The notes below the pieces were generated by a model that was not told where the DNA came from, did not search any database, and was given only the letters and a program-made list of their open reading frames with translations. Shown here one piece after another: positions 20,090-36,481 of a DNA stretch of 64,000 nt. Both the position numbers and the translations under genes were made by a program. How positions within the stretch are numbered: the first letter of the stretch is position 1; each line of letters opens with the position of its first letter. This DNA is from Novosphingobium sp. (GTDB lineage Bacteria > Pseudomonadota > Alphaproteobacteria > Sphingomonadales > Sphingomonadaceae), in contig JBDSIY010000102.1 of the NCBI GenBank assembly GCA_039917735.1, positions 3,888 to 67,887 of the forward strand, written 5' to 3'.

Positions 20090-20138
20090 CGCGTTCGTTC
20101 CCAGTAAATGACTGGTGATCGCAACATGGAATGGCCGT

Positions 20139-21608
20139 TCAAGCCAGGCCTCGCTCTCGCGTCCGGACAGCGGCGAGTTTGGCCTGATCGATCCGGAAGG
20201 TGCCGACCAGGAAGGCCATCGCGCTGCCCGCGACGAGGATCAACGTCAGCACGAACCAGGCCAGTGCGTTCACCTTGTCGGCCGGCATCTGCTCGACCGA
20301 CAGGCCCGCAGGAAAGTGGATCAGGCCGAGGAACGAGCCGGCGAGCAGCGCCACCGCGCCGCTGCCAAGCTGCAGGCCGATGAACATGAAGCTGGCGACC
20401 AGGCCCTGCGCCGGCCGGCCGGTGTCTGCCTCGTGCTCGTCACCGATGTCATAGGTTACGACGTTGAACGGGACCACGTAGAGCCCGTAGGCAACACCGC
20501 CAAGGAAGCGGATGGCGAAGATGAAAGCGCCAATCGCCGCGGTCCCGGGCGGCGGCGAGAGGCCGGCGAGCGGCAGTAGCACCGCGCATGCCTGAATCAT
20601 GAAGAACGCGCTCAAGCCAAGCATCATGGCCCGCCGGCTGCCAACCGCACGGAGGAACGCGGGCGCCACGATCATTGCCGCGAGCGTGCCGAACACCCCC
20701 GCCATCAACAGCCGCGGCGTCCAGGTGCCGTCGAGCTGCCAGAAGTAGGTCGCGAGATGCAGCGACAGCTGGTTGATCACCGAGTTGGTGAACAGGACCA
20801 GGAAGGCCACCAGCAGCAGCCGACCGATGTTCGGCGTGGTCCTTACCGCTACCGCGAACCTTTTGAAGATCGCGACGATTCCCGTGTCTCCGCTTTCCGA
20901 CGGCGTTGCCGCCATCGCCTCGATTGCCCGCGCACGTCGATAGGTCCCGACTGCCCCGATCAGCATCAACACGCCGCCGAGCAGGGCCACGAACAGGCCG
21001 AAGCCGGGGTAGGGGGCGGGATTGAGCTGCGGCTTGGGGAAAGCAGCGGTGTGGACGAAGAACACACCGAAGGCGATCGCAGGGACCGAGAGGATGACCA
21101 GCTGGTTGCCAAGATTGCGCAGCACGGCGATGATCCGCCGCTCGGCCTGCAGTTGCGACAGCTCGCCGCCGAGCGCGTAGGCGGGCACCGTCCAGAACGA
21201 TATGCCGCATCGCGCCAGCAGCCCGAATCCGAGCAGCCAGGCGAGGATTGACGGCTGGCTCATCCCTTCTGGGGGCGAGAAGACCCCGGCGATGCCGATC
21301 ATGAACGGAATGATCGCCGCGAACATCAGCGTGTGGCGACGGCCGAACCGCGCGCCGGTTAGCCGGTCGGACAATCCACCGATCCACGGATCGACGATCG
21401 TGTCGAAGGCGATGATCACCGCGATGGCAGTGCCGATCAGCAACCCGTCGAGGCCGACCACCTGGGCATAGAAGAACAGCACGAAGGCGTCCCAGGCGAA
21501 GGCCTTGAGCAGCTCGGGCATGGCGCAGACCATCCACGCCAGCCGCTCTGGCCATGACAGCCTGTCGCTTATGGCGGGCGCAGTTGCGCCTGCTCCAACA
21601 ATCGCCAC
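20139..21608 (-). CDS. MFS transporter (GPH/MFS_2-like)
   Basis: DTIVDPWIGGLSDR, RFGRRH, about 12 hydrophobic segments; GTG 21608 has a GGGAGAG RBS (track start 21635). Confidence 0.88.
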   Translation of the reverse strand: MAIVGAGATAPAISDRLSWPERLAWMVCAMPELLKAFAWDAFVLFFYAQVVGLDGLLIGTAIAVIIAFDTIVDPWIGGLSDRLTGARFGRRHTLMFAAIIPFMIGIAGVFSPPEGMSQPSILAWLLGFGLLARCGISFWTVPAYALGGELSQLQAERRIIAVLRNLGNQLVILSVPAIAFGVFFVHTAAFPKPQLNPAPYPGFGLFVALLGGVLMLIGAVGTYRRARAIEAMAATPSESGDTGIVAIFKRFAVAVRTTPNIGRLLLVAFLVLFTNSVINQLSLHLATYFWQLDGTWTPRLLMAGVFGTLAAMIVAPAFLRAVGSRRAMMLGLSAFFMIQACAVLLPLAGLSPPPGTAAIGAFIFAIRFLGGVAYGLYVVPFNVVTYDIGDEHEADTGRPAQGLVASFMFIGLQLGSGAVALLAGSFLGLIHFPAGLSVEQMPADKVNALAWFVLTLILVAGSAMAFLVGTFRIDQAKLAAVRTRERGLA

Positions 21609-21655
21609 AGCCGCTCTCCCGATTTTGCACGCCACGGCGGGGCGGGCGCGTCAAT

Positions 21656-21671
21656 TAGAATATATATTCTA
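21656..21671. promoter_or_regulatory. Palindromic operator, copy 1 (TAGAA-N6-TTCTA)
   Basis: TAGAATATATATTCTA, a perfect palindrome upstream of the MFS gene. Confidence 0.8.
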
Positions 21672-21700
21672 TATTGAAAACCGGAGTCAACCGTCCGTGG

Positions 21701-22381
21701 TTAGAAGGTCGCTTTCAGATAGGCGAGGCACATCCGGCCGAGTTCGCGCTTGAGCAACGTCCAGTCGGTGCTCTGCGCCGATTCACCGGTCGAACCGAGG
21801 CTGAGTTCGCGTGCGAGTGTCGCAAAAATGATCTGGTGGGTGGCCCGTGCCTTGGTCTCGTGATCATCGCCGCCAAACTCGTCACTATAAGCCAGCATCG
21901 CGCCTGCCCCGAGCCGCGCCGACCGAAAGGCGCTCTCCTTTCCCGGCCCCGAAACGAGCGGATCGAACGACGCGCGCTCCATCGACAAGCGTAGCAGCGG
22001 CGCGTTCAGCTTGAGCACCTCGGCATAGGCTTCGACATAACGCGGCACGAAGTCGGCCAGCGAGGTTGACGATGCGCGCAGCTCCGCCAGCATCCGATCC
22101 TCGTCGACGACAATTCCTTCAAGCGCATTGGCGATCACGGCGCGGACGAGGTTCTCCTTGCTTTCGAAGCGGAGGTAGATCGATCCGATCGATACCTTGC
22201 CCCGCTGGCTGACGTCCTGGAGGGTAAAATCCTCACTTCGCAGTTCAAGCATAAGTTCCCGCGCCGCGCCGAGCATGCGTTCAAATGAGGCCTGGCTGCG
22301 GCCTTGCCGCGGCTTGCGGCTGACGGTCTCAACCGCGAAGGCTGGAGCTGGGGACGGTTTCTTTTTCGAAGCTGTTGACAT
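21701..22381 (-). CDS. TetR/AcrR family transcriptional regulator
   Basis: PRQGRSQASFERMLGAAREL...FTLQDVSQRGKVSIGSIYLRFESKE HTH. Confidence 0.92.
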   Translation of the reverse strand: MSTASKKKPSPAPAFAVETVSRKPRQGRSQASFERMLGAARELMLELRSEDFTLQDVSQRGKVSIGSIYLRFESKENLVRAVIANALEGIVVDEDRMLAELRASSTSLADFVPRYVEAYAEVLKLNAPLLRLSMERASFDPLVSGPGKESAFRSARLGAGAMLAYSDEFGGDDHETKARATHQIIFATLARELSLGSTGESAQSTDWTLLKRELGRMCLAYLKATF

Positions 22382-22407
22382 CGCTGCCAGCCAGAGATTA
22401 TCAAAAC

Positions 22408-22423
22408 AAGAACGTCAATTCTA
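22408..22423. promoter_or_regulatory. Palindromic operator, copy 2
   Basis: AAGAACGTCAATTCTA in the divergent tetR / LLM intergenic region. Confidence 0.65.
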
Positions 22424-22467
22424 ATTTGAACGCGGGCAGCGAAAATGTGCCGCAAGGGAGAAAATGG

Positions 22468-23565
22468 ATGCGTTTCTCGGTGTTCCTCAATGCCCGTTCG
22501 CTCGGCCCGGACGAAGATCGGCAGTTGATGAAATCGCTCGAGCGCCACGCGCTACGCGCCAGTGAGGGCGGGTTCCAGGCCATCTTCATGCCCGACCACC
22601 ACTTCAACGGCTATATGCCGATGGCCAGCGACAGCTTCATCTACGCGGCCTACCTGGCGGCGAAGATGCCGCACATGCATTTCGGCTTCTCGGTCGTCTC
22701 CGTGCCGCTGCATCATCCGGTGCGCTTCACCGAGCGGGTCAGCATCCTCGACCAGCTGACCGACGGCAAGCTGCTGGTGGGGATCGGTTCGGGCACCACG
22801 CCCGAGGAGATGATCGGCTTCTCGGTCAACTACAAGGAAGCCAGCGCCCTAGCCGAGAAGAACCTGGCCACAGCCGAAGAGCTGTGGGCCAAGCGGATGG
22901 AAGACCCGGCGGTGGTGATCGACAACGGGCCGTACCAGGGCCGCGTGCTGCAGCGGATCACCCCGGCGCCCTATACACCTGGGCACGCCCGGCTGATGCC
23001 GGTAGCGATGAAAGAATCGAGCGCCCGCCGTGCGGCGGTCAACGGCTGGCCGGCGTTCATCCCCGCGTTCACCCCCCCGCAGATATTCGGCAACGAACCG
23101 TACAAGCACGTCAAGAAGTTCTTCGACATCTACAAGGGCATGCTGCTCGAGGCCGGGCATAGCGATGCGGTCGTCGCCGAGGCGCTGGGATGGACCACGC
23201 ACACCTACCAATGTGTCCATGTCGCCGAGAGCGAGGACCAGGCGCGCGAGGAGCTGGAGGTGATCCTGCGCGGCTATCAGGATGCGATCGACCGCGAAAA
23301 CGAGTTCAACGCCCGCGCCGAGAGTGATTCGCCAAACAAGAAGAGCGACGTCAATGTCACCGCGCTCGACGAGGGCTGGATCGGGACCTGGTGCCTTTAC
23401 GGCACGCCTGAGAAGCTGGTCGAGGAGCTGCGGCCCTACGCCGAGCTCGGTATCGGCAACGTCCTGTGCGGAACCACCACCGGTCCGCTCACCGAAAAGC
23501 GGCTCGCCTACGCCGACCAGACGCTCGACCTGCTGTCGCGCAAGGTCATTCCGGCGTTTTCATAA
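22468..23565 (+). CDS. LLM-class flavin-dependent oxidoreductase
   Basis: MPDHHF, HHPVRFTERVSILDQLTDGK, CLYGTPEK. Confidence 0.88.
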   Translation: MRFSVFLNARSLGPDEDRQLMKSLERHALRASEGGFQAIFMPDHHFNGYMPMASDSFIYAAYLAAKMPHMHFGFSVVSVPLHHPVRFTERVSILDQLTDGKLLVGIGSGTTPEEMIGFSVNYKEASALAEKNLATAEELWAKRMEDPAVVIDNGPYQGRVLQRITPAPYTPGHARLMPVAMKESSARRAAVNGWPAFIPAFTPPQIFGNEPYKHVKKFFDIYKGMLLEAGHSDAVVAEALGWTTHTYQCVHVAESEDQAREELEVILRGYQDAIDRENEFNARAESDSPNKKSDVNVTALDEGWIGTWCLYGTPEKLVEELRPYAELGIGNVLCGTTTGPLTEKRLAYADQTLDLLSRKVIPAFS

Positions 23566-23576
23566 GCGAGGTAGCC

Positions 23577-24746
23577 GTGCTCAACGTCGGGATTGTCGGG
23601 GCAGGGGCGATCGCTCCGCCCTATTACATGGCGGTAGCGGCTTGGCCGCAGCTGCGCTTCCTCGCCTGCACCTCGCGCCGGATGGAGAGCGCGAGGAGGA
23701 TGGCGGCGCAGCACGGGGTTGCCGCCGTTCCGTTGGCGACGATGCTCGCGGACCCCGCGATCGACACGATCGTCAACTTGACGCCGATCCAGGCTCATTA
23801 CGCGACGAGCAAGGCGATCCTCGAGGCCGGCAAGCACCTGTATTCGGAGAAACCGCTGGCGGCGACCGTCGCCCAGGCGCGCGAGCTGCTGGTGCTGGCT
23901 GAGGCGCGCGGGCTGCGCGTCGGCTGCGCACCCGACACATTCTTCGGCTCTGCGCATCAGGAGGCGCGCGCTGCAGTTGACAGCGGTGCGATCGGCACGC
24001 CGGTCGGCGCCGCGCTGTTCCTCGGCACAAGCGGCTGCGAGGCCTGGCATCCCTATCCCGAACCGTTCTACCAGACTGGGGCGGGCCCGGTCGCCGACCA
24101 TGCGCCCTACTACTTGACCCAGCTGGTCAATCTGCTCGGCCCCGTCGCGGCGGTCACGGCGATGAGCACCCTCCCGGCGAAAGTGCGCACGCTCGGCAAC
24201 AAGGCGCGTGCGGGCGAGACCATCGTCAGCGAGGTCGATACAACTGCCTCTGGCGTAATCGAGATGGAAGGCGGTCAACTCGTCACATTGACGATGTCCT
24301 GGGACATGGGGCCGCACGGGCGCAATCCGATCGAGGTCTATGGCACCGGGGGATCGCTGCACAACCCGGACCCGAACTGGTCGGACGGACCGGTGCGGGT
24401 GGTATCGGCAGAGGGCACGGTACGCGACCTTGATCACACCGACCGCGCATTCTCGCGGCCGACGATGATCACCTTTCAGGGCAATCCCGTCGCCTATTAC
24501 CGGCTTTGCGGGCTTGCCGACATGGCAGATGCGATTGCACAGGGCAGGCCGCATCGGGCCAGCGGCGGGCTCGCGTTCCACGTCCTTGAAGTAATCGAGG
24601 CGGTGCGGTTGAGCAGTGAGCTAGGTCGGCGAATTGAAATCGCCTCGCGTTGCGAGCGGCCCGCGCCGATCGGCGACGACATCTCTGATGCGGCAACCAT
24701 CAAACCCTTCGGCGAGGAGCTGCTCGATGCGCGAACCCTCTTTTGA
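23577..24746 (+). CDS. Gfo/Idh/MocA family NAD(P)-dependent oxidoreductase
   Basis: NVGIVGAGAIA Rossmann motif, GKHLYSEKPLA, RVGCAPDTFFG, GPVADHAPYY; GTG start. Confidence 0.92.
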   Translation: MLNVGIVGAGAIAPPYYMAVAAWPQLRFLACTSRRMESARRMAAQHGVAAVPLATMLADPAIDTIVNLTPIQAHYATSKAILEAGKHLYSEKPLAATVAQARELLVLAEARGLRVGCAPDTFFGSAHQEARAAVDSGAIGTPVGAALFLGTSGCEAWHPYPEPFYQTGAGPVADHAPYYLTQLVNLLGPVAAVTAMSTLPAKVRTLGNKARAGETIVSEVDTTASGVIEMEGGQLVTLTMSWDMGPHGRNPIEVYGTGGSLHNPDPNWSDGPVRVVSAEGTVRDLDHTDRAFSRPTMITFQGNPVAYYRLCGLADMADAIAQGRPHRASGGLAFHVLEVIEAVRLSSELGRRIEIASRCERPAPIGDDISDAATIKPFGEELLDARTLF

Positions 24747-27096
24747 CGAATGCTGCGCGCTGACCGCGGGCGCGGCGATGTGGGCGAGCGTTGCGGTGCC
24801 GGACGCCGGCATCCCCTCGTTCACCATGGCAGACGGCCCGATGGGCATTGCCAGCGGCAACGTCGACGAGCGCGAAATCTCGTTGCTCACGCCATGCCCG
24901 ACAGCGCTTGGCGCCACCTGGGACGTGGAGATCGTGCGCAAGATCGGCGGGGCGGTCGGCAGCGACGCGGTGGCACGGGGGATTGACGCCGTGCTCGCGC
25001 CGAATCTCAACCTCGCGCGCAGCCCGCTCGCCGGCCGGGCATTCGAGTATTTCTCGGAGGATCCGCTGCTCGCCGGCGTGCTCGGCGCAGCGTGGATTGG
25101 GGGTTTGCAGGATACCGGGACCGGCGCCGTCGCGAAGCATTTGGTCTGCAACGACAGCGAAACCGAGCGCGATCGGATCGACGTGCAGATCGATGAGCGA
25201 ACGCTGCGTGAAGTGTATCTGCTGCCGTTCGAGCTGGCGGCGGAGGCTGGCTGCGCGGGGATGCTCGCCGCTTACAACAAGGTCAACGGCAGCTGGTGTT
25301 CCGAACAAAACCACATCCTCACCACCATCCTCAAAGGCGAGTGGAACTTCCAGAACCTGGTGATGAGCGACTGGTTCGGCACCCATTCGACCGAGGGCAC
25401 GATCGCCAGCGGGCTCGACCTGGAAATGCCAGGTCCCGGCCGGTTCTGCGGCTCCAAGGTCGCCGAAGCTGTCCGATCCGGCGCCGTGACTCGCGAGCGG
25501 GTGGAAGACGCGGCGCGCCGGGTGGCTGCTACCGCGCGACAGGTTACGAGTCGGAAGAGCGATCCCCTGCCGCCCGCCGAGGCTCAAGCCGTCCTTGAGG
25601 AAGCGGCGGGCGAAGGCTTCGTGCTGCTGCGCAACCAAGGGGACATGCTGCCGCTGGTCCCGGGGGCGGTGAAGCGGATCGCGGTAATCGGTCCAAACGC
25701 GGCGGCGCCCTGCTACCAAGGCGGAACCTTCGCCAAAATAGCCGTTGCGCCCAACACGCCTACCCCGATCGACGCCATCCGTGCTCGCTATGGGGAACTG
25801 ACCGGGATCGTCTTCGAGCCCGGCGTCGATCCTCAGCCGCGGCTGCCGGCAATGCCGGCGCGCCCGGCGCGCGACCTGGGTGACGGCTGCCGCGCGGGGA
25901 TGACGATCGACTATTTCCCCAGCACCGATTGCTCGGGTGAGCCGCTGTTCAGTGAGACGCGCAGCACCAATTCGCTGGTCTGGTTCACCGGCCAGCATAC
26001 CCAGGGACGGTTCGATCAGCCCGGCTCGATCCGCGCCAGCGGTCGATTTGCCGTGGCCCAATCGGGTACCCACCGACTTTATCTTGGCGCCACGGGTCCG
26101 GCCCGGATGCTCGTCGACGGGTGCGACGTGTTGAAGGCCGGACGAGAACTCCCCGCGAGCGACGTCATGGGAGTGCTGAAAAGCGGCGACGCCGAAATGA
26201 TTGGGATCGAGTTCGAGGCAGGACGCGAGGTGCTGATCACCGTCGAATTCCGTTACGACGCGGCCCGGGTTCACGGGCTGTGGTACGGTATCCGCGCGCC
26301 GGACAGCGCCGAGGCAATGCTCGCGCGCGCGATCGAGGCGGCGAAGTCGGCCGACGCCGTGTTCCTGATCGTCGGCGAAACTTCCGATTCGAGCGTCGAG
26401 AGCAAGGACCGTCCCGACACCAAATTGCCGCCCGAGCAACTACGGCTGATCGAAGAGGTCTGTGCCGCCAACTCCCGCACCGCCGTGGTCGTCAATGTCG
26501 GACATGCCTTCGATGCGGAATGGGGCGAGCAGGCCGCGGCGTTGATGGTCGCCTGGTATCCGGGGCAAGGCTTTGCCACGGCGCTCGCCAGCGTGCTTGC
26601 CGGAGAACGCGAGCCCGGCGGGCGGATGCCGGTCAGCATCGCCCGGCGCGAGGCCGACTATTGCGGCTACGCGCTACAGCCGGACGCGGATGGCCGGCTT
26701 GCCTACGCTGAAGGAACGCTGCTCGGCTATCGCGGTCTGATCGCCAACCACACACCGGCGCGGCACGCCTTGGGCAGCGGTTTCGGCTATGCGCGTTTCG
26801 GGCTGGCCGGCGTCGCGGCGGGGGATGGCGAAATTTCGGTCACGGTCCGCAATGTTTCCGATCGTGCGGGCGCCGAAGTGATCCAGCTTTATCGCGATGC
26901 GCCTGAGTGCGCTCTCGTCGGCTTCAAGAAGGTACGGCTCGCTGCTGGCGAGCAGCGCCGGGTGACGATCCCGGTCGAGCGCCGCGCGCTGCGGAGCTGG
27001 CGGGACGGCTGGAGGATGCCCGATGCGCCGGTCGCAATACGCGTCGCGCGCTCGGCCGAAGATGTAGGAACCACGGTGGAAGTGACGGTGGCGTGA
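24727..27096 (+). CDS. GH3 beta-glucosidase with PA14 insertion, no signal peptide
   Basis: ADGPMG, LAPNLNLARSPLAGRAFEYFSEDP, KHLVCND, VMSDW nucleophile motif, FN3-like C-terminus. Confidence 0.92.
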   Translation: MREPSFDECCALTAGAAMWASVAVPDAGIPSFTMADGPMGIASGNVDEREISLLTPCPTALGATWDVEIVRKIGGAVGSDAVARGIDAVLAPNLNLARSPLAGRAFEYFSEDPLLAGVLGAAWIGGLQDTGTGAVAKHLVCNDSETERDRIDVQIDERTLREVYLLPFELAAEAGCAGMLAAYNKVNGSWCSEQNHILTTILKGEWNFQNLVMSDWFGTHSTEGTIASGLDLEMPGPGRFCGSKVAEAVRSGAVTRERVEDAARRVAATARQVTSRKSDPLPPAEAQAVLEEAAGEGFVLLRNQGDMLPLVPGAVKRIAVIGPNAAAPCYQGGTFAKIAVAPNTPTPIDAIRARYGELTGIVFEPGVDPQPRLPAMPARPARDLGDGCRAGMTIDYFPSTDCSGEPLFSETRSTNSLVWFTGQHTQGRFDQPGSIRASGRFAVAQSGTHRLYLGATGPARMLVDGCDVLKAGRELPASDVMGVLKSGDAEMIGIEFEAGREVLITVEFRYDAARVHGLWYGIRAPDSAEAMLARAIEAAKSADAVFLIVGETSDSSVESKDRPDTKLPPEQLRLIEEVCAANSRTAVVVNVGHAFDAEWGEQAAALMVAWYPGQGFATALASVLAGEREPGGRMPVSIARREADYCGYALQPDADGRLAYAEGTLLGYRGLIANHTPARHALGSGFGYARFGLAGVAAGDGEISVTVRNVSDRAGAEVIQLYRDAPECALVGFKKVRLAAGEQRRVTIPVERRALRSWRDGWRMPDAPVAIRVARSAEDVGTTVEVTVA

Positions 27097-27120
27097 TCCG
27101 CGCCTGATCCGGCTGGCCGG

Positions 27121-28029
27121 CTATGGTTTTGCCTTCAGAAACCCGTTGGTCTGCAGCCAGCGGCGAAAGCCTTCGATCCAGTCGACCGTTGTCGTGCCCG
27201 CCTTGCCCAGGCCGAAGCCGTGGCCGCCCGACTGGTAGAGGTGGAATTCGGCCGGGATGCCCGCGCGCAGCCAGCTTTCGACAAGACCGAAGCCCTGTTT
27301 GGCGAACAGGGGGTCGTCTGCCGCCAGTACCGCGTAAAGCGGAGGCGCTTTCGCCGGCACTGGACCAGCGGCGAACCTGCCGTAGATCGGCGCGATGAAC
27401 GCCGGCATCGCATCCGGCGCCGCGGCCCGGGCGACGCTCAGCGTGGTGAAGGCGCCGGCCGAGAAGCCCATCATGCCGACGCGGTTCGGATCGATGCCCC
27501 AATCGCGCGCTCTGACGCGCACCAACCGCATCGCCGCGAGGCCGTCCGCGAGCGCCTCGGGCGGCGTGTCCGCCGGGGGGCGGAAGCTCGCGGGCCCCCT
27601 GCCGTTTCGCATCGCGATCACTTCGCGGCGGAATGCCGCCGGGTCGGCGGGCGTGGGTAGCACGCGGTATTTGAGCACGAACGCGGCAACGCCGTGGTCC
27701 GCCAGCCACTGGGCGATGCGGAAACCCTCCTCCTCGATTGCCAGGCCGAGGAAGGCGCCGCCGGGCGCGACGATCACCGCCGCGCCTGTGCCGGCTCCCG
27801 CAGGCGGCAGGAACGGCGTAAGCGTGGCTCCCGACACATTGCGGACCTGGAGAGACCCGTTTTGCCGAAACCAGTCCTCGCGCGGCTGACCCCGGCCGGT
27901 GCCGAGCGGGATAACGCCGGGGTAATCGGCCGGCGCGGCATCGCTGAACTGCATGATGACGGATTCCTGCGCGATGGCTGGACCGATGCCCGTCAGGGCG
28001 AATGCAAGCGCGGTCAGGAGGAGCTTCAT
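27121..28029 (-). CDS. Secreted alpha/beta hydrolase (BD-FAE/acetylxylan esterase-like)
   Basis: Signal peptide MKLLLTALAFALTGIGPAIA; VAPGGAF, GFSAG, DDP, GGHGFG. Confidence 0.85.
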   Translation of the reverse strand: MKLLLTALAFALTGIGPAIAQESVIMQFSDAAPADYPGVIPLGTGRGQPREDWFRQNGSLQVRNVSGATLTPFLPPAGAGTGAAVIVAPGGAFLGLAIEEEGFRIAQWLADHGVAAFVLKYRVLPTPADPAAFRREVIAMRNGRGPASFRPPADTPPEALADGLAAMRLVRVRARDWGIDPNRVGMMGFSAGAFTTLSVARAAAPDAMPAFIAPIYGRFAAGPVPAKAPPLYAVLAADDPLFAKQGFGLVESWLRAGIPAEFHLYQSGGHGFGLGKAGTTTVDWIEGFRRWLQTNGFLKAKP

Positions 28030-29231
28030 GCCATGGCCTTCCGGGCGATAACGGCGTTCCCCGCCAGTGCTACGCAACCGGCGGCCAGACCGGCGACGCC
28101 GGCGAACAGGAACGCGCCCTGCATCGAGCCCGAATACCCTTCGATAACGTGCACCAATCGCGGCGATTGCGATTGTCCAAGGAAGAACGCCCCCGTCCAC
28201 AAGCCTATGCCGCGCCCGCGATGCTCGAAGTCGAACTTGGTCTGGGCCCACGAGATCAGCGTCGGGACCGCCATGCCCGCCGCGGTTTGCTGAACGACCA
28301 GCGCCGCCAGCATCGCGGTGACGCTTTGGGCGAGGCCCATCCCCGCCAGCCCGGCGCCCATCAGCGTCAGGAACACGCCGAGCTGCAGGGTGTTGGGCCG
28401 GTTGGCCAGCAACCGGAATAGCCCCGAGCCGATCAGGATGCACAGGCTCGGCACGAAGATTAGCCGTCCATAGCGGTCGGGCTCGGTCACGCCGACTTCA
28501 ACGAAGGCAAGCGCGCCGTTGATGATGAACACGTAGTAGAGCATCGACGCGAAGAGGGTGATTGCGGCGATCAGCACTGCGCTGCCCCAGGGAAAGGGCG
28601 TGGCCGGCGCCGCCCGCGGCCCCGGCTCATCGAGCGCCTCGGTGCGGTGCGGTTCGAACAGCCAGACGAACATCGCCGCCCAGATCGGAAAGGCGACGAG
28701 GTACACGAAGAACACCCCGTTCCATTGCAGCTCGCTGGCATAGCCGACGATCAGCGAGAAGATCGCGGCAATGAAAGGTCCGAGCAGGCCCTGAAGGAAC
28801 AGCCAGTTCTTCCTACCGAGATCGTCCCAATAGTCGCCGATCAGCGTGTTGACCACGGTCAGGATGCCCGCCTCGGACACCCCGAGGAGCAGCCGCGAGA
28901 TATAGATGTGGTCAAGATTGTCGAGCAGCAGCGGCGCCGATCCGAACACGCCGTACATCGCCGTTGCGAGGAGCAATAACGGGCGGCGGCCGAAGCGATC
29001 GACGAGCAAGCCGGCGAACGGAGCCAGCAGCGCCATCGCCAGGCCGGGCGCGCCGATCATCGCCGGCACTTTGGCTCGTGCTTCGGGATCCTGCGCGAAA
29101 TGCCCGATCATCGTCGGCACCGCAGGGCCCATCGCAACGATGGCGATGATCGGCAGGAATGCGGCGATGACGACGGTCAACCCCTGCGGCTTCAGCGTCA
29201 GTTCGCGAAAGAATGTGCGGATCGCGTCCAT
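28026..29231 (-). CDS. MFS transporter
   Basis: AGLLVDRFGRRPLL motif A; about 12 TM segments. Confidence 0.9.
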   Translation of the reverse strand: MDAIRTFFRELTLKPQGLTVVIAAFLPIIAIVAMGPAVPTMIGHFAQDPEARAKVPAMIGAPGLAMALLAPFAGLLVDRFGRRPLLLLATAMYGVFGSAPLLLDNLDHIYISRLLLGVSEAGILTVVNTLIGDYWDDLGRKNWLFLQGLLGPFIAAIFSLIVGYASELQWNGVFFVYLVAFPIWAAMFVWLFEPHRTEALDEPGPRAAPATPFPWGSAVLIAAITLFASMLYYVFIINGALAFVEVGVTEPDRYGRLIFVPSLCILIGSGLFRLLANRPNTLQLGVFLTLMGAGLAGMGLAQSVTAMLAALVVQQTAAGMAVPTLISWAQTKFDFEHRGRGIGLWTGAFFLGQSQSPRLVHVIEGYSGSMQGAFLFAGVAGLAAGCVALAGNAVIARKAMA

Positions 29232-29305
29232 TGCCTCTCCCAACCGACGCTCGATTCGTCGTCGTGCCTGCTGCTTGCGTCAATTAACCCTGGAATCGCG
29301 TTGAG

Positions 29306-30130
29306 CTACTGCCCGGCCTTGATCCCGGCAATCTCAGTTGCGTCAATAGGACGGATCGCGACGTTGCGGAACCAGACCTCGGCAGCTTCGAACTCCAGCG
29401 CGATGCGGCCTTTCTTCAGTGGCGCGGCTCCGCGGTCGATCATCGCGAAGAGCGTCGTCACAATCCGTCCATTGACCAAGTGCGCGGCCTGATCGTCGAA
29501 GGCGTAAAGATCGAGCGTATTCCAACCATCGAGCTTCTCGTAAACACCCGAATGCCGTAACCACTGGCGAGCGAAGCCGCCGGCGACCAGCGGCTCCTGG
29601 TAGCTGCGTGGCAGGCCGGGGAAGTAGGTGGGCCAAAGCGGCGTTCCCCCCAACAGCGGTCCCTGGAGCGCCTTCGTGTTGACCATCACCGCGTCCCCAA
29701 CATCCCCTTCCTCAACTTGGAACTCGACGCAGTCGGGAAACAGCCGGTCTATTTCAGGGGCCATATGATAGAGGACGCCGCTGTTGCGCCGTTGCAGCCC
29801 GCGCGGCGCAAAGCGGCGCTCGCCCCATCGGAACTCGAGCCGCAGGTGGAAGTCGTGCCATTCCTGCACCGTGGCGATATGGCCGAACGTCGCGCTGGCC
29901 GGTCCGTCGAAATCGGGGCCGAGAAAGTGCAGCATGCCTTGATCGATCGCGATCGCCTGGTGAGCATCACGATTGCCAACGCCCTGCTGAAAGATCGTCC
30001 AGCCATCCAGATCCCGGCCGTTGAACAACTTGCGCCAATTGGGCTCGGTCGGCGCCGCTGCGAGCAGCCGGGCCGGAGCAAGAGCAAGCGCAGCGGCCGC
30101 GGAACCGATTGCATGGCGGCGGTCGAGCAT
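29306..30130 (-). CDS. DUF1080 (3-keto-disaccharide hydrolase family) protein with twin-arginine-type signal
   Basis: MLDRRHAIGSAAAALALA; LFNGRDLDGW, DFHLRLEFRWG, NSGVLYH, EFQVEEGDVGD, GRIALEFEAAEVWFRNV. Confidence 0.88.
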   Translation of the reverse strand: MLDRRHAIGSAAAALALAPARLLAAAPTEPNWRKLFNGRDLDGWTIFQQGVGNRDAHQAIAIDQGMLHFLGPDFDGPASATFGHIATVQEWHDFHLRLEFRWGERRFAPRGLQRRNSGVLYHMAPEIDRLFPDCVEFQVEEGDVGDAVMVNTKALQGPLLGGTPLWPTYFPGLPRSYQEPLVAGGFARQWLRHSGVYEKLDGWNTLDLYAFDDQAAHLVNGRIVTTLFAMIDRGAAPLKKGRIALEFEAAEVWFRNVAIRPIDATEIAGIKAGQ

Positions 30131-30136
30131 CCCGAC

Positions 30137-30529
30137 TTACGCCGCCAAAGCCAGTTCCTTGGTGTCCTTGGTGGTGGGCACGAACGGCAGGTAGGACACC
30201 CGCATCCGCACCGCGAAGGTGATGCTGTGCTTGCCGGGCGCCAACCCACCCGGCTTCAGCGCGACAATCCGCGCCTTCTCGCCGAAATTCCAGCGGTCGT
30301 CCAAGACGGTTTCCATCTCGTCGAGCGTATAGGTCTTACCGCGGACCGAGAATCGCACGTCCTCGCGCGCGATCGCGTCGCCGTCGACGGTGACGGCGAT
30401 GTCCTCGACCATCGAGAGACCGAGGCCGCGATAGTAGGGCAGCCGGCCCAGAAAGGCGAAGCCGATGGTCTCGCCGTTCTCGACGACGTTCTCGAACAGC
30501 TCGGTGCAGATCATTTTGTTGTCCATCAT
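30137..30529 (-). CDS. DUF6379 protein, C-glycoside deglycosidase beta-subunit-like
   Basis: RLPYYRGLGLSMVEDIAVTVDG, GKTYTLDEM, W.FGE.A, GGLAPGKH, R.SYLP; directly downstream of the TIM-barrel alpha-like gene. Confidence 0.82.
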   Translation of the reverse strand: MMDNKMICTELFENVVENGETIGFAFLGRLPYYRGLGLSMVEDIAVTVDGDAIAREDVRFSVRGKTYTLDEMETVLDDRWNFGEKARIVALKPGGLAPGKHSITFAVRMRVSYLPFVPTTKDTKELALAA

Positions 30530-30584
30530 GGGATGGCACTCCGATTGGGGCCGGCGTTGATCGTTCGGCCAGCGAAATGGGATC

Positions 30585-30672
30585 GTCATGCTGAACCCGG
30601 TTCAGGATCCATCGCGCGCGCCGGGGAAAACGGCGAAAGGGTAAATGGACCCGGATCCAAGTTCAGCGTGAC
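30585..30672. other. Intercistronic imperfect inverted repeat (stem-loop)
   Basis: GTCATGCTGAAC (30585-30596) pairs with GTTCAGCGTGAC (30661-30672) at 11/12; the inner GGATCCAT pairs with ATGGACCC or GGATCC. Confidence 0.55.
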
Positions 30673-30689
30673 AAGGGAAAACGGGTGGG

Positions 30690-31700
30690 TCAGGCCGCCT
30701 TGAGGGCCGGAACCTCCGGTTCACCGAGCAGCTGCGCCAGCATCACCTGCTGGCGCCGGACCTGCTCGACCGAATCCGGCTCCTCGGCGTCTTCGATCCA
30801 GCGATTGCCTTCGTATTCGGAGCATATGTAGCCCTGATAACCACCCTGCTTGAGCACCGACACGATCTCGTCGTAGGGGATAGACGGCTCGACATAGTCG
30901 GCGGTCATCTCATAGAACTTGCCGTGGACGTTGTGGATGCGCGGCATGTAGTCGAGCATCCGCTTCGGCTCGAACGCGGCGTTGTGGCGCATCACCTCGG
31001 CCATTGCGATGGCCGGGCCGACGCCGCCCATTTGCTGAACGTCAAGGATCACATATTCGGACAGCACCCGGTCCTCGTATGCCTTGACGATATAGTCTGC
31101 GATGTTCTTCGGCACGCCGAGCCGTTCGAACTTCGCCCGCCAGACGGGTGGGTAGGCATGGAGGAACATGCCCATGTCGGGGAGGAAGCCGAGCGCCGGG
31201 GAGCCCGACTTGTCGAAAGCCTCGGCGAGGCGGATGATCCAGGGATGGTCGAAGTGCAGCGGAGCGTGGACTTCGGTGAGCAGCATGATGCCCTTTTCTT
31301 CGGCATAAGGCGCGGCGGCGACCAGCACGTCCGGCGAGATCGAGACCAGCGAACGCAGATATTTCATGCCGAGCCGGACGCCGAAATCGATGTCCTTGCG
31401 CACGCTGGCGACCTGTTCGTCGAACGGCATCAGCCGCCCCTTGTAGCGCTTGTAGTCGAGCATGTAGTCGTGGCTGACCGGAACCGTGCCGTACTTCTGC
31501 ATTAGCCCATGCCAGTTGGCGATGGCGGCGTCCTCGACGCCGACCTCGGGCCAACCCCAGAAGCTCTGCTCGCCGATGATCTCGATGCCATAGGCGCCCA
31601 TTTCGGCGCAAGTCCGGACGCAATCCTCCAGGTTCATCTTTCCCTGAAAGGTCTCGTTCTGGAAGCTGTAAAGGCTCACGCCCCGCTTGATGTCCGCCAT
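30690..31700 (-). CDS. Metal-dependent TIM-barrel, C-glycoside deglycosidase alpha-subunit-like
   Basis: GVSLYSF N-terminus; candidate metal/catalytic motifs EVHAP, PDMG, HGKFY, SEYEG; paired with DUF6379. Confidence 0.82.
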   Translation of the reverse strand: MADIKRGVSLYSFQNETFQGKMNLEDCVRTCAEMGAYGIEIIGEQSFWGWPEVGVEDAAIANWHGLMQKYGTVPVSHDYMLDYKRYKGRLMPFDEQVASVRKDIDFGVRLGMKYLRSLVSISPDVLVAAAPYAEEKGIMLLTEVHAPLHFDHPWIIRLAEAFDKSGSPALGFLPDMGMFLHAYPPVWRAKFERLGVPKNIADYIVKAYEDRVLSEYVILDVQQMGGVGPAIAMAEVMRHNAAFEPKRMLDYMPRIHNVHGKFYEMTADYVEPSIPYDEIVSVLKQGGYQGYICSEYEGNRWIEDAEEPDSVEQVRRQQVMLAQLLGEPEVPALKAA

Positions 31701-31760
31701 AAATCCTCTCTCGTGAAGGCATCCACCCTGAGCGGGCTTGCGCCGCCCGGTGATGCAAAC

Positions 31761-31776
31761 TAGAATCTATATTCTA
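31761..31776. promoter_or_regulatory. Palindromic operator, copy 3
   Basis: TAGAATCTATATTCTA followed by TATTG; 20/21 identical to copy 1 with its flank; upstream of the alpha-subunit gene. Confidence 0.8.
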
Positions 31777-31861
31777 TATTGCGCGCCCACCGTCAAGAGT
31801 GAAAGTTCCCTGAGAGAGAAATTAACACGCTTGTGGCGCGTGGCCGGGTTGTTTCCTGCCG

Positions 31862-33202
31862 TTAAGCGGTCGCCAGTCCCCGGGCGGTGATGTCGTCCCG
31901 GATGCGCTGATGCTTGCCGTCCATCGGCCAGAACATCACGACGAGGATCTGGAGGCCGATCAGGACCACCGCCCCGCCATAATAGGACCATCGTATCGCC
32001 TCGCGCGCAGCGTCGCTGACCGAACCGGGCGCATAATCGTAGAATCCGAGCATGAACGCGATCCCGGCGGTGCCGATCGCCATGCCGATCTTGGTGGCGA
32101 GGCTGACGCCGGCGGACAGCAGCCCCTCCTTACGGGTGGCGAACAGCCACTCGTGGTAGTCGACGGTCTCTGCGATCATCGTGAAGGCGGCGGTGATCGT
32201 GATCGAGGTCGCGAAACTGGCGAGGAAATAGATCGCCAGAAACAGCGGCGGGTTCGTTTCGGTGAGCGGCAATAGCAGGAACAGGATCATCGCCGCGAAG
32301 AGTACGGCGACGCAGCCCCGGCGGATGCCGGTGCGGGCGAGGATCGCCGGTGCGACAAAAGACGACAGTAGTAGCATCCCGGCGACGGCCGGCAGCATCA
32401 CCGAGATCATCCAGGGCTCGCGCAGCACTTCGATCGCGAAATAGGTCGTCACCGACATCATCGCGCCGAAGCGGATGAAGTAGAGCAGGCAGAAGCCGAA
32501 GCTGACGATCCAGGCGCGGTTGTGCAGCATCTCGCCGACGGCGGGGAGGATGGCGAATTTTGCCGATCCGGCATCCTCGTAGCGCTCGCGGCAATTGCGG
32601 AACAGATTGATCAACGCGGCCAAAGACAACCCGGCGAACAGCACCGCCACGGCCAGGAAGCCGCGTTGCTCATCGCCCCTGCCGAAAAGGCCGACCAGCG
32701 GCATCGTTGCCGCCGTGCCGAGCACCACCGCCACAGAGGTCCCGATCGAGCGCATGCCGCTCAGGCGCAGCCGATCCGACGTATCCTCGGTCATCATCGG
32801 CATCAGCGCGGTATAAGGGATCGACCCGAACGACATGACAATGCCCAGCGCCTTGAAGGTCAGGAAGGCATAGACGAGTTGACCCCATTGCGACCATCCC
32901 GGCACGCTGAACACCAGCACGAACAGGACCGCATAGGGAACCGCGGTGACCAGGAAATAGGGCCGCGTCCGGCCCCAGCGGCTGCGCGTCTTGTCGACGG
33001 CGATGCCAACCAGGAAGTCGATCACCGCGTCGAGCAGCCGGGCGGTCAGGAAGATCGTCCCCACCGCAGCGGCGGGCAGCTTCACCACGCTGACGTAGTA
33101 GTAGAGCAGGAACCCGCTCGCCATATTGTAGGGCAGGCTGTAGCCGAGGTCGCCGAAGCCGTAGCTCAGCCGCTCTGACAAGCGTAGTCTGGGTTGTTCC
33201 AC
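31862..33202 (-). CDS. GPH (glycoside-pentoside-hexuronide):cation symporter
   Basis: ERLSYGFGDLG, ARLLDAVIDFLVGIAVDKTRSRWGRTRPY, ETVDYHEW; GTG 33202 with a GGAG RBS. Confidence 0.92.
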   Translation of the reverse strand: MEQPRLRLSERLSYGFGDLGYSLPYNMASGFLLYYYVSVVKLPAAAVGTIFLTARLLDAVIDFLVGIAVDKTRSRWGRTRPYFLVTAVPYAVLFVLVFSVPGWSQWGQLVYAFLTFKALGIVMSFGSIPYTALMPMMTEDTSDRLRLSGMRSIGTSVAVVLGTAATMPLVGLFGRGDEQRGFLAVAVLFAGLSLAALINLFRNCRERYEDAGSAKFAILPAVGEMLHNRAWIVSFGFCLLYFIRFGAMMSVTTYFAIEVLREPWMISVMLPAVAGMLLLSSFVAPAILARTGIRRGCVAVLFAAMILFLLLPLTETNPPLFLAIYFLASFATSITITAAFTMIAETVDYHEWLFATRKEGLLSAGVSLATKIGMAIGTAGIAFMLGFYDYAPGSVSDAAREAIRWSYYGGAVVLIGLQILVVMFWPMDGKHQRIRDDITARGLATA

Positions 33203-33227
33203 CGGATCGTCTCCAGTCTGGTTCGGA

Positions 33228-33566
33228 TCAGAGGCCGAGCGCGGCGCGGGTCTTGGCCAGGGACTCGGCGGCGGGAAGCGTCGGCTTGTATTCCAGCCCG
33301 ATGCCGCCGTCATAGCCAAGCTCGAGCGGCATCGCGATCACCACCGGCCATTCGACCAGGCTGCGGCGCGGCTCAACGACAATCCCGGTTAGCTGAACGC
33401 CGGTCTCAGCGAGCACGGGGCCAATCGTGGCGACATCCTTGTCGCGCCAGAAATGGAACTCGACGGCGTCAAAGCCAGCGGCGCGGGCGGCACGGATGCG
33501 TTCGGGGGTTTCGGGGTGCTCAGACGCAAACAGCCTTTCGATGCACGGCGATAGGTACACGGGCAA
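33228..33566 (-). pseudogene. Hydroxypyruvate isomerase (Hyi)-like TIM barrel with a large in-frame internal deletion
   Basis: The N-terminus (LSPCIERLF...RIRAARAAGFDAVEF) joins directly to the C-terminus (LGYDGGIGLEYKP). It is 112 aa versus ~250 aa for the family, and the central EPLN / D.YH / H.AD.PGR motifs are absent. Confidence 0.78.
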
Positions 33567-33624
33567 TCTCTCCCATCGCGCCGCACCCGTTGTTCGGGCG
33601 TCGAGCTGGCGTGTCGCCGTTTAT

Positions 33625-33640
33625 TAGAATAGCAGTTCTA
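33625..33640. promoter_or_regulatory. Palindromic operator, copy 4
   Basis: TAGAATAGCAGTTCTA in the divergent hyi*/TonB receptor intergenic region. Confidence 0.78.
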
Positions 33641-34020
33641 GTTACCGGGTGAGCGGGGTTTGCGCAAGCCCTTTTCCCAACGCAGGCGCCGTCGCCATGG
33701 CCTCGGCGCAATCCGGATGGCGGGGCACGGCGCCTGCTGCCAGGCGGGGCATGCGATTGCTGTTATACATAGCCCCCAGCTATGAAACATCGATAAAACA
33801 TTATTTTACGCGACCGGGGCGGTGGGGCAGGAGTTGCGCGGCAAGGCATCGCTTCATGCGCAAAAGTTGAACGCAGCAATTCCAGTTGTGGTCTGCTATT
33901 GAAACAAAAAATTCGACCGATGGATTAGCCGGTGGCAGAGGCAACGCGGTGTCCGCGGTACGTCTTTAGCGTGAATCGTAGGCGCCCGAAGCGGCGTCGA
34001 ATTTGGGGAGAGTGATCATC

Positions 34021-36441
34021 ATGTCCAAGCGAACGTACCTGCGCGCCTTGCTGACTGGCGCCGCCATCTTGGCGCCGGTCACACCGGCGCTGGCACAGCC
34101 GAGCGCGGCTGACGACAGCAACATTATCATCGTCACCGCGCAGAACCGCGCGCAGGCGGTGAACGATGTGCCGATCGCGATTGACGTGGTGACCGGCGAG
34201 AAGCTGCAGCAGGCTGGCTTTTCGAACATGAACGACATCGACAAAATCGCCCCCGCCGTCCAGCTCAACCAAGACCAGGGCACGGTGAAAGTCACCGTGC
34301 GCGGTGTCGGCACCAACTCCAATGATGAAGCGCAGGACACCTCAGTCGTCATCAATATCGACGGGGAGTATCTGAACCGCCCTAATGCGCTTGGCGTTTC
34401 GCTGTTCGACCTGGACCGGGTCGAAGTCCTGCGCGGGCCGCAAGGCACGCTCTACGGACGCAACTCAACGGGCGGCGCGATCAACTTCATCACCCGCAAG
34501 CCGGGTACGGAATTCGGCGCCAACGCTTCGGCGAGCTACGGCAACTACAATGCAGTTCGGGTCGATGGTGGGATCGATCTGCCGTTCGGCACCATCGGCG
34601 GACTGCGCCTCGCCGGGTTCTACGATGAGCATGACGGCTACACGCGCCATCCTGCGAGACCGGGGTTCTTCGTATTCCCGGCGTTCGCCGGCGGTCGTTC
34701 GGACGACAACCAGGCCTACGGTGGCCGGGTGTCCTTGCAGCTCGAACCAATCGACCACCTGACCATCAACGTCGCCGGTGAATACGCCGAGCGCCACTTC
34801 ATTCCATCTACGTTTGCCTACACCGATCTCAACGGCGCCGGCAACGGCCCCGGCCCGAACTGCACGCTCAATGGGTACAGCCGAGTCGCACCGGCGTACC
34901 CCCAGACCTTGTGCGTACCGTCTAATACCAACTTCCTCTCCACCATCGACCGCTCCAATTTCCCCACGCCGTTCTTCGGCTTGGGCAACATCGACCAGAA
35001 AACCTACGCATTCCGGGGACGAGTGGCTTATGAATTCAGCGAGGCAGCGACTCTAACCTACACGGGCGGCTACCGCAACTTCAAGGAGAACTCCTACCGG
35101 CCGTTGCCGATCGTCTACCAGTCGTTCGGCTTCGGCAACGAGACGAAGACCCAGAGCCACGAATTACGGCTCAACGGCGTGGTGGGCGGCATCACCTATC
35201 AGCTGGGCGGGTTCTACTTCAAAGAAAAGATCGCCAGTGAAAGCGGCTTCTTCGTCGCTCCGATCGGGTTGCCTGGGGGTTCGTTCCTGACCTACTTCGG
35301 CCGCTTCATCAGCAGCGACAGCAAATCGGTCTTCGGCCAGGTCGAGGTGCCGCTCGGCAGTACCCTGACCGCAGTCGGAGGTCTGCGCTACACGAAGAAC
35401 TCCCGTGACGCGACCTACATCCAGGGCAACCCGTTCACTGCCTATAACACCGTTGCGATACCGGCCGGCCCGGGGTGCTCGGGCGCGATTGGCTCGTGTA
35501 TAGTCGGTAGCCCGAACTTCGCGCTGCTCGGCACAGGACCGGCCCGGAAAGACGTGTTCAACATCGCCGCCAACATCCAGCCTCTTTCGACCAGCGAGGA
35601 CAAGATCACCTGGCTCGCGGGTCTAAACTACAAGCCCAACCCCAACACGCTGATCTACGGGAAGGTCGCGACGGGCTTCAAGGGTGGCGGGTTCGATGCG
35701 ATCGGCAACTACAAGCCAGAAAGCAACACCGCCTACGAAGGCGGCTGGAAGCAGACCTTTGGCGATCACCGCCAGCACCAGTTCAACCTCAGCGCGTTCT
35801 ACTACGATTATAAGGATCTGCAGGTCTCCGTCCTGCTCGATACGACAAAGGGTGGCCAGACGTTCAACGCCGGTAAGGCGAAGATCTATGGCTTCGAGGC
35901 CACAGCCGACATCGCGTTGGACGACAATGACCGGTTCAATGCTTCGTTCAATTACCTACACGCGAAGTATGGAGAGCTGTTCGCCCAGTTCAATGTGTTC
36001 ACTGTTCCGGGCACGGGCCCGGACATCAACGGCGTGGGCGATCTCGATCCGAACACTCCGGGAATCCAGCAGCCGAACTTCAAGGGCAATACCCCTCCGT
36101 TCTCGCCTAAATTCATCATCACAATGGGCTATGAGCACGTTTTCGACCTAGGGGGCGCGGGCCATCTGACCGCTCGGGTCGATACCTTGTTCAAGAGCGC
36201 CTATTTCACCGACTTCTACAACTATCGCGACGGTCGCCAGAGCGCCTACACCCAGACCGGCGCCAGCCTGGAGTACAAGCCTGAGAACCGGCGCTTCACC
36301 GTCGCGGTGTTCGCCCGCAACCTCGAGAACGAGCGGACGCTGACTTATGGCAGCTTCGTCTCCGCAGGTCCGGACGACATCTACAATTGGCAATTCGGCA
36401 CGCCGCGGACTTACGGCGTACGCGTCGGCGTCGACTTCTGA
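34021..36441 (+). CDS. TonB-dependent receptor (~806 aa)
   Basis: Signal peptide, IIVTAQNRAQ, DRVEVLRGPQGTLYGRNSTGGAINF, C-terminal PRTYGVRVGVDF. Confidence 0.95.
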   Translation: MSKRTYLRALLTGAAILAPVTPALAQPSAADDSNIIIVTAQNRAQAVNDVPIAIDVVTGEKLQQAGFSNMNDIDKIAPAVQLNQDQGTVKVTVRGVGTNSNDEAQDTSVVINIDGEYLNRPNALGVSLFDLDRVEVLRGPQGTLYGRNSTGGAINFITRKPGTEFGANASASYGNYNAVRVDGGIDLPFGTIGGLRLAGFYDEHDGYTRHPARPGFFVFPAFAGGRSDDNQAYGGRVSLQLEPIDHLTINVAGEYAERHFIPSTFAYTDLNGAGNGPGPNCTLNGYSRVAPAYPQTLCVPSNTNFLSTIDRSNFPTPFFGLGNIDQKTYAFRGRVAYEFSEAATLTYTGGYRNFKENSYRPLPIVYQSFGFGNETKTQSHELRLNGVVGGITYQLGGFYFKEKIASESGFFVAPIGLPGGSFLTYFGRFISSDSKSVFGQVEVPLGSTLTAVGGLRYTKNSRDATYIQGNPFTAYNTVAIPAGPGCSGAIGSCIVGSPNFALLGTGPARKDVFNIAANIQPLSTSEDKITWLAGLNYKPNPNTLIYGKVATGFKGGGFDAIGNYKPESNTAYEGGWKQTFGDHRQHQFNLSAFYYDYKDLQVSVLLDTTKGGQTFNAGKAKIYGFEATADIALDDNDRFNASFNYLHAKYGELFAQFNVFTVPGTGPDINGVGDLDPNTPGIQQPNFKGNTPPFSPKFIITMGYEHVFDLGGAGHLTARVDTLFKSAYFTDFYNYRDGRQSAYTQTGASLEYKPENRRFTVAVFARNLENERTLTYGSFVSAGPDDIYNWQFGTPRTYGVRVGVDF

Positions 36442-36481
36442 GATCAGGCTCTTAAATCTGCAGCCGCGCTTTACCTACCAG

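Follow-up and report, generated by a model that had tools for sequence, protein, structure and literature searches.

A predicted TetR operator at the promoters of a C-glycoside/3-keto-glycoside breakdown gene set in Novosphingobium and related sphingomonads

Regulator-operator pairs such as TetR-tetO, QacR and EthR set the pattern for the TetR family: a protein with an N-terminal helix-turn-helix (HTH) domain (PF00440) and an all-helical ligand domain acts on a short dyad operator that overlaps a promoter, while the regulator gene and its target operon point away from each other on either side of the operator. The closest functional analogue known to us of the system treated here is GusR (UidR) of the gus operon in Enterobacteriaceae, which senses glucuronides. 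In Bacillus subtilis, plant polyphenol aglycones release the TetR repressors LmrA and QdoR (YxaF), whose targets are genes for efflux and dioxygenases and not for the cleavage of glycosides. The oxidative route by which C- and O-glycosides are cleaved, with C3 oxidation followed by beta-elimination, was worked out enzymatically only about 2021-2023. The gene clusters described for it, i.e. PUE dgp, Microbacterium carABC and Agrobacterium GlycDH-OGE-HYD-Gfo, combine C3 oxidation, Mn-dependent beta-elimination by a TIM-barrel enzyme, hydration and reduction by Gfo (PMC8563793, PMC10628242). Here we describe a 16-bp palindrome, TAGAA-N6-TTCTA, in a 64,000-nucleotide stretch of Novosphingobium sp. 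DNA (GenBank assembly GCA_039917735.1, contig JBDSIY010000102.1, hereafter C102; the whole analysed stretch, C102:3888-67887, is called the window). It is highly probable, judging by sequence, that this palindrome is the operator of a TetR repressor encoded at 21701-22381, which would also regulate its own gene.

With the classical pairs, the locus shares the HTH and all-helical ligand domains (EthR, NalC and FadR are among the fold matches of its regulator), the short dyad overlapping promoters and the divergent arrangement with a site between regulator and operon. It differs from them in that the regulator has only 13-21% identity to solved TetR proteins, aligns with them by sequence only in the HTH region and belongs to no NCBIfam subfamily, and in that five operators would form a dispersed catabolic regulon instead of serving a single efflux or resistance gene. 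GusR has in common with it TetR-family control of the uptake and cleavage of glycoside conjugates, as well as the fold (6ayh, rank 38 among the structural matches). The identity is, however, about 21%, the GusR system employs a GH2 hydrolase where oxidative beta-elimination is predicted here, and we know of no operator sequence common to the two regulators. LmrA and QdoR, likened by description and not by sequence, offer a precedent for an aglycone inducer. The oxidative deglycosylation clusters show the same enzyme logic, with CGD alpha and beta homologues present in our locus and with a GMC flavoprotein plus twin-arginine (Tat) small subunit paralleling GlycDH and its TAT protein, the glycoside 3-dehydrogenase of Rhizobium (PMC10628242). 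In contrast to those clusters, the genes are split here over several promoters, joined to TonB-dependent uptake and marked by one operator motif.

When one mismatch was allowed, the palindrome was found four times in the window. Only 0.04 matches are expected, and none of 100 dinucleotide-preserving shuffles gave four, so that a chance origin of these copies is excluded. The copies at 21656, 31761 and 33625 are exact and the one at 22408 contains a single mismatch. An earlier first-pass annotation of this DNA had listed the same four copies, and their coordinates and sequences were reproduced, as was the identity of copies 1 and 3 at 20 of 21 nt including the TATTG flank. All four are intergenic and stand ahead of transcription units of the glycoside locus, again as described there. 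The predicted operators and the gene for their proposed regulator are as follows (site scores refer to the weight matrix introduced below):

21656..21671, no strand: operator site 1, TAGAATATATATTCTA, 38.6 bits; 29 nt past the tetR stop codon and 20 nt ahead of the GTG start of an MFS/GPH transporter gene
21701..22381, minus strand: tetR, encoding the proposed repressor of 226 aa (PF00440)
22408..22423, no strand: operator site 2, AAGAACGTCAATTCTA, 32.2 bits; in the intergenic region between tetR and the divergent gene for a luciferase-like monooxygenase (LLM), at distances of 26 nt to the ATG of tetR and 44 nt to that of LLM
31761..31776, no strand: operator site 3, TAGAATCTATATTCTA, 34.8 bits; 60 nt upstream of CGD alpha
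33625..33640, no strand: operator site 4, TAGAATAGCAGTTCTA, 34.2 bits; 58 nt upstream of a unit consisting of a TIM-barrel remnant and the transporter gene MFS2_B, and 362-381 nt upstream of a divergent TonB receptor gene
C102:70798-70813 (position 66911 on the window scale, 2.9 kb outside it): operator site 5, TAGAATATCCATTCTG, 31.1 bits

Site 2 is the copy noted there between tetR and its divergent operon, i.e. in an autoregulatory position. Across the assembly (2,807,855 bp in 112 contigs, 66.6% G+C), exact copies numbered three, every one of them in the glycoside locus. Nine further copies had one mismatch: seven GC-rich ones located elsewhere, apparently in coding sequence, then site 2, and an AT-rich intergenic copy which is site 5. 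The first-pass annotation had seen no copy outside the locus; this holds for the exact copies, while site 5 has to be added, which belongs to the same pathway. Likewise, the regulon character of what had been called a four-promoter regulon was supported, but the operators count five, with one beyond the window. Alternative spacers from N0 to N12 yielded between zero and two exact copies each in the whole assembly, scattered and none comparable. A 22-bp weight matrix, built from these sites and those of relatives, scored the five sites at 31-39 bits over the 2.8 Mb, followed by matches of 22.9, 16.0 and 13.5 bits (C77:20171, C20:18527 and C44:1417, with 16.0 bits for C20:18527). Inspection covered the 22.9- and 13.5-bit matches, C77:20171 and C44:1417; both were rejected as regulon members, their neighbours being the unrelated genes for a SUF-type ATPase and ruvA/toxin-antitoxin genes. 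On the genome scale, the motif is exclusive to the glycoside gene set rather than common in unrelated promoters.

All five sites front genes of one predicted pathway. Site 5 lies about 33 kb from the others, and the intervening DNA contains an open reading frame (ORF) similar to topoisomerase IV/gyrase subunit A (C102:67299-69587). The presence of such an unrelated housekeeping gene between them fits a trans-acting factor. Other roles for the palindrome were considered and rejected. A terminator or RNA hairpin is contradicted by stems of 5-6 AT-rich pairs with no T-run; terminator-like matches near sites 1 and 2 all fall inside tetR, and an Rfam search over 19000-37000 gave no family. As for an origin from repeats or mobile elements, there are no transposase genes, and the sites keep fixed promoter positions across genera.

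Conservation was examined in two sets of loci. The first was selected by the regulator. TetR homologues were found in 6 of 61 genomes of the same genus, this genome included, and a scan of a species-representative genome collection gave 41 loci, from Novosphingobium, Sphingomonas, Sphingobium, Sphingopyxis, Erythrobacter, Aurantiacibacter, Alteraurantiacibacter and Croceicoccus (at least these eight named genera). Culturable carriers of the regulon include Novosphingobium subterraneum DSM 12447, N. taihuense CGMCC 1.3432 and Sphingomonas populi 3-7. Together, these loci (710 kb) contain 35 exact and 24 one-mismatch sites, all at promoter positions, namely ahead of CGD alpha, the TonB receptor, the tetR/LLM pair, the redoxin/Tat small subunit pair and MFS_1. 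Most loci lacking a strict match harbour degenerate versions of the motif at the same places. The tetR-proximal sequence TAGAATTGACGTTCTT, the reverse complement of site 2, is identical in loci of Erythrobacter, Aurantiacibacter, Sphingopyxis and Novosphingobium, and the redoxin/small subunit pair with a site between its genes recurs in Erythrobacter and metagenome loci. Conservation also extends to positions that the search pattern did not specify: A at -1 (81%), A at -2 (62%) and a pyrimidine at position 6 (91%). The core is TAGAAY-N4-RTTCTA, a 6-4-6 dyad, and the extended 22-bp motif reads AAnTAGAAY-N4-RTTCTAnTT.

The second set consisted of 80 metagenome loci chosen by CGD alpha alone (74-87% identity). 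Within their 959 kb, 143 sites of at least 25 bits were detected, of which one lies inside a recognised gene. Their distribution over downstream gene families, with the smaller counts for MFS2_A, MFS2_B, GMC and the 3-keto-hydrolase-like gene omitted, was:

CGD alpha: 37 sites
TonB receptor: 22 sites
tetR: 17 sites
LLM: 14 sites
MFS_1: 14 sites
TIM-barrel gene: 12 sites
Tat small subunit: 11 sites
MFS_C: 11 sites
redoxin: 8 sites

A further 26 sites had no recognised gene start within 350 nt. Conservation upstream of orthologous operons, one of the ways in which the first-pass annotation had proposed to check its idea, was observed in both the 41 and the 80 related loci. In addition, two analyses were made free of the pattern itself. 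Counting all 6-mers in 69 distinct CGD-alpha upstream regions put TTCTAA at the top (40 of 69 regions, 1.8 expected), with CTTGAC second (34 of 69). Aligning the 42 regions that hold TTGAC on this box alone gave the consensus cTTGACs-N~13-TTATAnGAATAT..ATTCTAATTAGGG, by which the palindrome was recovered. The order tetR - site - MFS2_A was kept in five loci (L066, L068, L072, L087 and L099). One metagenome locus with a much lower G+C content, 50% (L137, CERD01048761.1), contains CGD alpha and beta, GMC with its small subunit, MFS_1, a TetR of 37% identity and TAGAAT-N4-ATTCTA sites; from this, the regulon may extend past the high-GC sphingomonads.

The sites also keep defined distances from a TTGAC box. 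In 40 of 49 distinct CGD-alpha promoters the box stands 14-16 nt ahead of the palindrome (TTGACG at 14 nt for site 3 of the window). Of 33 TonB-receptor promoters, 13 have a spacing of 16 nt; in the four MFS2_A promoters it amounts to 16-17 nt (16 nt in three of them), with TTGACT 13 nt ahead of site 1 in the window. With the 16-nt spacing, TAGAAT itself would come to lie at about -10 in the promoters of the latter two classes. Such an arrangement, together with the similarity of TAGAAT to TATAAT, could mean that the motif is a promoter element, i.e. a -10-like hexamer for the housekeeping or an alternative sigma factor, whose symmetry is incidental and which involves no repressor. This we consider very improbable. 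The TTCTA arm is conserved as strongly as the TAGAA arm, symmetric flanks are conserved likewise, the TTGAC spacing differs by promoter class (14-16, 16 and about 25 nt), and within 2.8 Mb the motif is limited to five promoters, all belonging to one pathway; a promoter element needs neither dyad symmetry nor a fixed N4 spacer.

The putative LLM promoter reads TTGACA-N16-18-TATCAA (N18 in the window) and is followed by the site 3 nt downstream. Its -35 box TTGACA is the reverse complement of part of the tetR start ATGTCAA (Met-Ser-Thr). In the window (22376-22408) and in related loci across genera, the same bases thereby serve the start of the repressor gene and the -35 box of the divergent operon. 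In loci L041-L049 (Sphingomonas/Sphingobium), a conserved element, GCGAAAATTCTGATTCGCG, is situated between site 2 and the LLM start; it is an imperfect inverted repeat with AGAAT-like half-sites, seen in the Sphingomonas group and absent from the window.

A repressor that keeps RNA polymerase off a promoter is expected to sit over the -10 region or the transcription start, and this is where the site would lie in the best-defined promoters (CGD alpha, TonB receptor, LLM and MFS2_A). It might be argued that TetR binds the sites as an activator or dual regulator and not as a simple repressor, since a long distance separates the site from the start codon at site 4 and at the TonB receptor, and since pairs of sites, 60-85 bp apart, occur in some related promoters. 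Considering the position in the best-defined promoters, and that to our knowledge nearly all characterised TetR-family proteins are repressors, we give this alternative very little weight.

What connects the palindrome with the TetR encoded at 21701-22381? The TetR_N domain (PF00440) was recognised at residues 38-82 with 27.7 bits against a gathering cut-off of 24. The AlphaFold2 (AF2) model of the protein (pLDDT 89.8, pTM 0.83) is all-helical with nine helices and shows a full TetR fold. All of the top 50 Foldseek matches in the PDB belong to the TetR family or have the TetR fold; their alignments span 186-210 columns, and their TM-scores, normalised to the target, range from 0.61 to 0.79. 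The nearest ones, EthR, NalC, FadR and GusR, are full-length regulators; matches by sequence in the PDB are restricted to the HTH domain. The recognition helix keeps the sequence VSIGSIYxRF in 48 relatives, even where identity drops to 37%, which matches an unchanged operator. Furthermore, 40 distinct tetR promoters have a site close to the gene start (median distance 24 nt), and a site directly ahead of tetR is the most constant feature of the loci. Among CGD-selected loci of at least 12 kb, the presence of TetR was associated at the locus level with the presence of at least two sites (26/1 versus 7/6, Fisher p = 0.003).

Alternatively, the palindrome could be the operator of some other dimeric regulator, for example the IclR-type protein encoded at 17113-17907 or a distant LacI or GntR protein, with TetR as a mere neighbour. 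The IclR gene was rejected as the source because it has no counterpart in any related locus. Clustering of the ORFs of 40 long loci revealed no regulator family conserved other than TetR; the other conserved families were ThuA, Gfo, TIM barrel, SnoaL, DoxX, FMN reductase and a second CGD pair. With the site directly upstream of tetR so constant and the recognition helix invariant, we regard a regulator other than TetR as unlikely. The region left of the locus that contains the IclR gene (17113-19691) also encodes a xylose-isomerase-like TIM barrel (18186-19055) and a SnoaL-like protein and has no TAGAAT-type site; as SnoaL-like proteins are common in related loci, part of it may belong to the pathway under different control.

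Several points weigh against assigning the palindrome to this TetR. The local context is compatible with a trans-acting factor encoded elsewhere, and seven CGD-selected loci possess sites while no TetR was present in the 10-kb flanks retrieved with them. At least three of the seven (L060, L064 and L092) are, however, cut off beside LLM or the TonB receptor, i.e. at the locus edge where tetR normally sits. The related loci share phylogeny and are hence not independent. The matrix scores are partly circular, because the sites behind the matrix were collected with the pattern; the conserved flanks and the two pattern-free analyses are free of this circularity. Finally, a strict sigma-70 scan at sites 1 and 2 found no canonical promoter, and the overlap of operator and promoter is for this reason deduced from the conserved TTGAC boxes and non-consensus -10 hexamers.

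Paralogous loci provide a further view of the link between motif and regulator. In two loci (L011 and L033), an orthologous TetR is located beside a paralogous CGD, and the motif is present. The genome under study itself harbours a second locus at C41:~19600-29800 (L015) with a CGD alpha of 45% identity, MFS_1, a TonB receptor and a full-length TIM barrel. There, the TetR paralogue has 50% identity and the helix YHRF in place of YLRF. No N6-spaced site was found in this second locus; a single related sequence, TAGAATATGGTTCTG, with a spacer one base shorter, occurs in the TonB receptor/TIM-barrel intergenic region (C41:28074), and the operator of the paralogue may differ in spacing. The motif tracks TetR rather than the type of enzyme. 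Taken with its exclusivity to the gene set, its conservation and the invariant recognition helix, this supports the proposal of the first-pass annotation, in which the TetR at 21701-22381 has the palindrome as its operator, binding itself being a prediction.

The genes under the sites, together with those inside the same units, are the following:

20139..21635, minus strand: MFS2_A, a glycoside transporter of the MFS_2/GPH type (PF13347, 2e-40), target of site 1
22468..23565, plus strand: LLM (PF00296, 1e-30), first in the LLM-Gfo-GH3 unit and target of site 2
23577..24746, plus strand: Gfo/Idh/MocA oxidoreductase (PF01408, PF22725, PF02894), start approximate
24634..27096, plus strand: GH3 beta-glycosidase with PA14 and Fn3-like domains (PF00933, PF01915, PF14310, PF07691)
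27121..28443, minus strand: alpha/beta hydrolase (PF07859/PF01738, residues 221-411 only), last gene of the CGD unit
28026..29243, minus strand: MFS_1 transporter (PF07690), inside the CGD unit, with no site of its own here
29306..30130, minus strand: 3-keto-disaccharide-hydrolase-like protein (PF06439, 2e-30)
30137..30589, minus strand: CGD beta (PF19906 CGDB, 5e-42)
30690..31700, minus strand: CGD alpha homologue (PDB matches), first gene under site 3
31862..33319, minus strand: MFS2_B, an MFS_2/GPH transporter (PF13347, 7e-80), in the unit under site 4
33228..33566, minus strand: remnant of a xylose-isomerase-like TIM barrel, 112 aa (profile positions 16-57 and 209-247)
34003..36441, plus strand: TonB-dependent receptor, divergent from the site 4 unit
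C102:70170-70781, minus strand: redoxin gene of the AhpC/TSA type, beside site 5
C102:70844-74615, divergent from the redoxin gene: Gluconate_2-dh3 small subunit, GMC flavoprotein of 562 aa and MFS transporter, under site 5

By its sequence similarities, this gene set is a C-glycoside/3-keto-glycoside breakdown pathway. The assignment begins with CGD alpha, which matches 8qvc (4e-110; a PDB code not traceable to a paper), the PuCGD 7EXZ group (1e-36), AgCGD2 7DNM (2e-30) and EuCGD; the PDB codes of the solved CGDs were identified from PMC8563793. An alpha subunit homologous to solved CGDs stands next to a PF19906 beta subunit, from which CGD membership follows and CGD activity is predicted. 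NCBIfam offered no specific family for TetR, CGD alpha, CGD beta or the 3-keto-hydrolase-like protein. Under site 5, the small subunit (PF13618) bears the twin-arginine motif RRDFFGG, and the GMC protein has GMC domains and finds its best PDB matches in the large subunits of fructose and FAD-glucose dehydrogenases. The two probably constitute a periplasmic glycoside 3-dehydrogenase of the GlycDH type. The units behind the five sites would serve oxidative deglycosylation from uptake and C3 oxidation through import and beta-elimination to follow-up steps.

Some of these genes call for comment. The true start of the alpha/beta hydrolase is probably downstream of the longest-ORF start, and MFS_1 orthologues in other loci have a site of their own. 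The TIM-barrel remnant joins N- and C-terminal pieces, matching the first ~45 and last ~40 positions of a hydroxypyruvate-isomerase-type TIM-barrel profile; as related loci hold a full-length gene of ~255 aa at the same place, the 112-aa ORF appears to be internally deleted. In relatives, the TonB receptor gene belongs to the regulon, with a site upstream of it at a median distance of 53 nt, but with the nearest site 362-381 nt away, membership of the receptor in this genome is uncertain. The unusually long non-coding stretch between site 4 and this gene (33641-34002) gave no Rfam match. In about ten related loci, a gene for an NADPH-dependent FMN reductase (PF03358; e.g. L065:13395-13961) is situated between GH3 and LLM; it is absent from the window.

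We propose the following model, which concerns predicted binding, repression and induction and draws on the motif, its exclusivity and conservation, its linkage to TetR and its position relative to the TTGAC boxes. According to the model, TetR, most likely as a homodimer, would bind the four operators in the window and the one at C102:70798, overlap the -10/+1 region of the promoters and shut off the downstream units. These would be: i) its own gene and the divergent LLM-Gfo-GH3 operon, ii) the MFS/GPH transporter gene, iii) the operon of CGD alpha, CGD beta, the 3-keto-hydrolase-like gene, MFS and hydrolase, iv) the second MFS/GPH unit and possibly the divergent TonB receptor gene, and v) the operon of the Tat small subunit, GMC dehydrogenase and MFS transporter with the divergent redoxin gene. 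A small molecule related to the pathway would release the repressor. Where the first-pass annotation had named the pathway substrate or a 3-keto intermediate as the ligand, the aglycone is an equally possible inducer, so that the candidates comprise the glycoside, its 3-keto derivative and the aglycone.

Searching the literature accessible to us for TetR together with C-glycosides or 3-keto-glycosides, we found no regulator or operator described for this pathway, and a text search of the key enzyme papers (including PMC8563793 and PMC10628242) returned neither. What the prediction would add is an operator and a repressor for the oxidative deglycosylation pathway. A TetR repressor acting on a palindrome is a textbook mechanism; the prediction of the regulon is solid and well supported, and its mechanism would be unsurprising. 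More tentatively, and with greater doubt than confidence, one may read the data jointly as a master switch: TetR and its operator would govern oxidative deglycosylation of plant C- and O-glycosides across the Sphingomonadales, link uptake through TonB receptors with C3 oxidation in the periplasm, import by MFS transporters and beta-elimination in the cytoplasm, respond to the 3-keto-glycoside formed in the initial periplasmic step as inducer, and represent the first regulator and operator known for the pathway as well as a biosensor part ready for use.

For the sphingomonads, the operator would serve as a sequence tag that lists the transporters, TonB receptors, LLM, Gfo, ThuA, DoxX, SnoaL and GMC dehydrogenase proteins of the pathway. 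Release of the repressor by a compound would be a direct route to the natural substrate. If the model is true, the pair of repressor and operator would also be a biosensor candidate, with plant C-glycosides or the corresponding 3-keto compounds as the substances detected.

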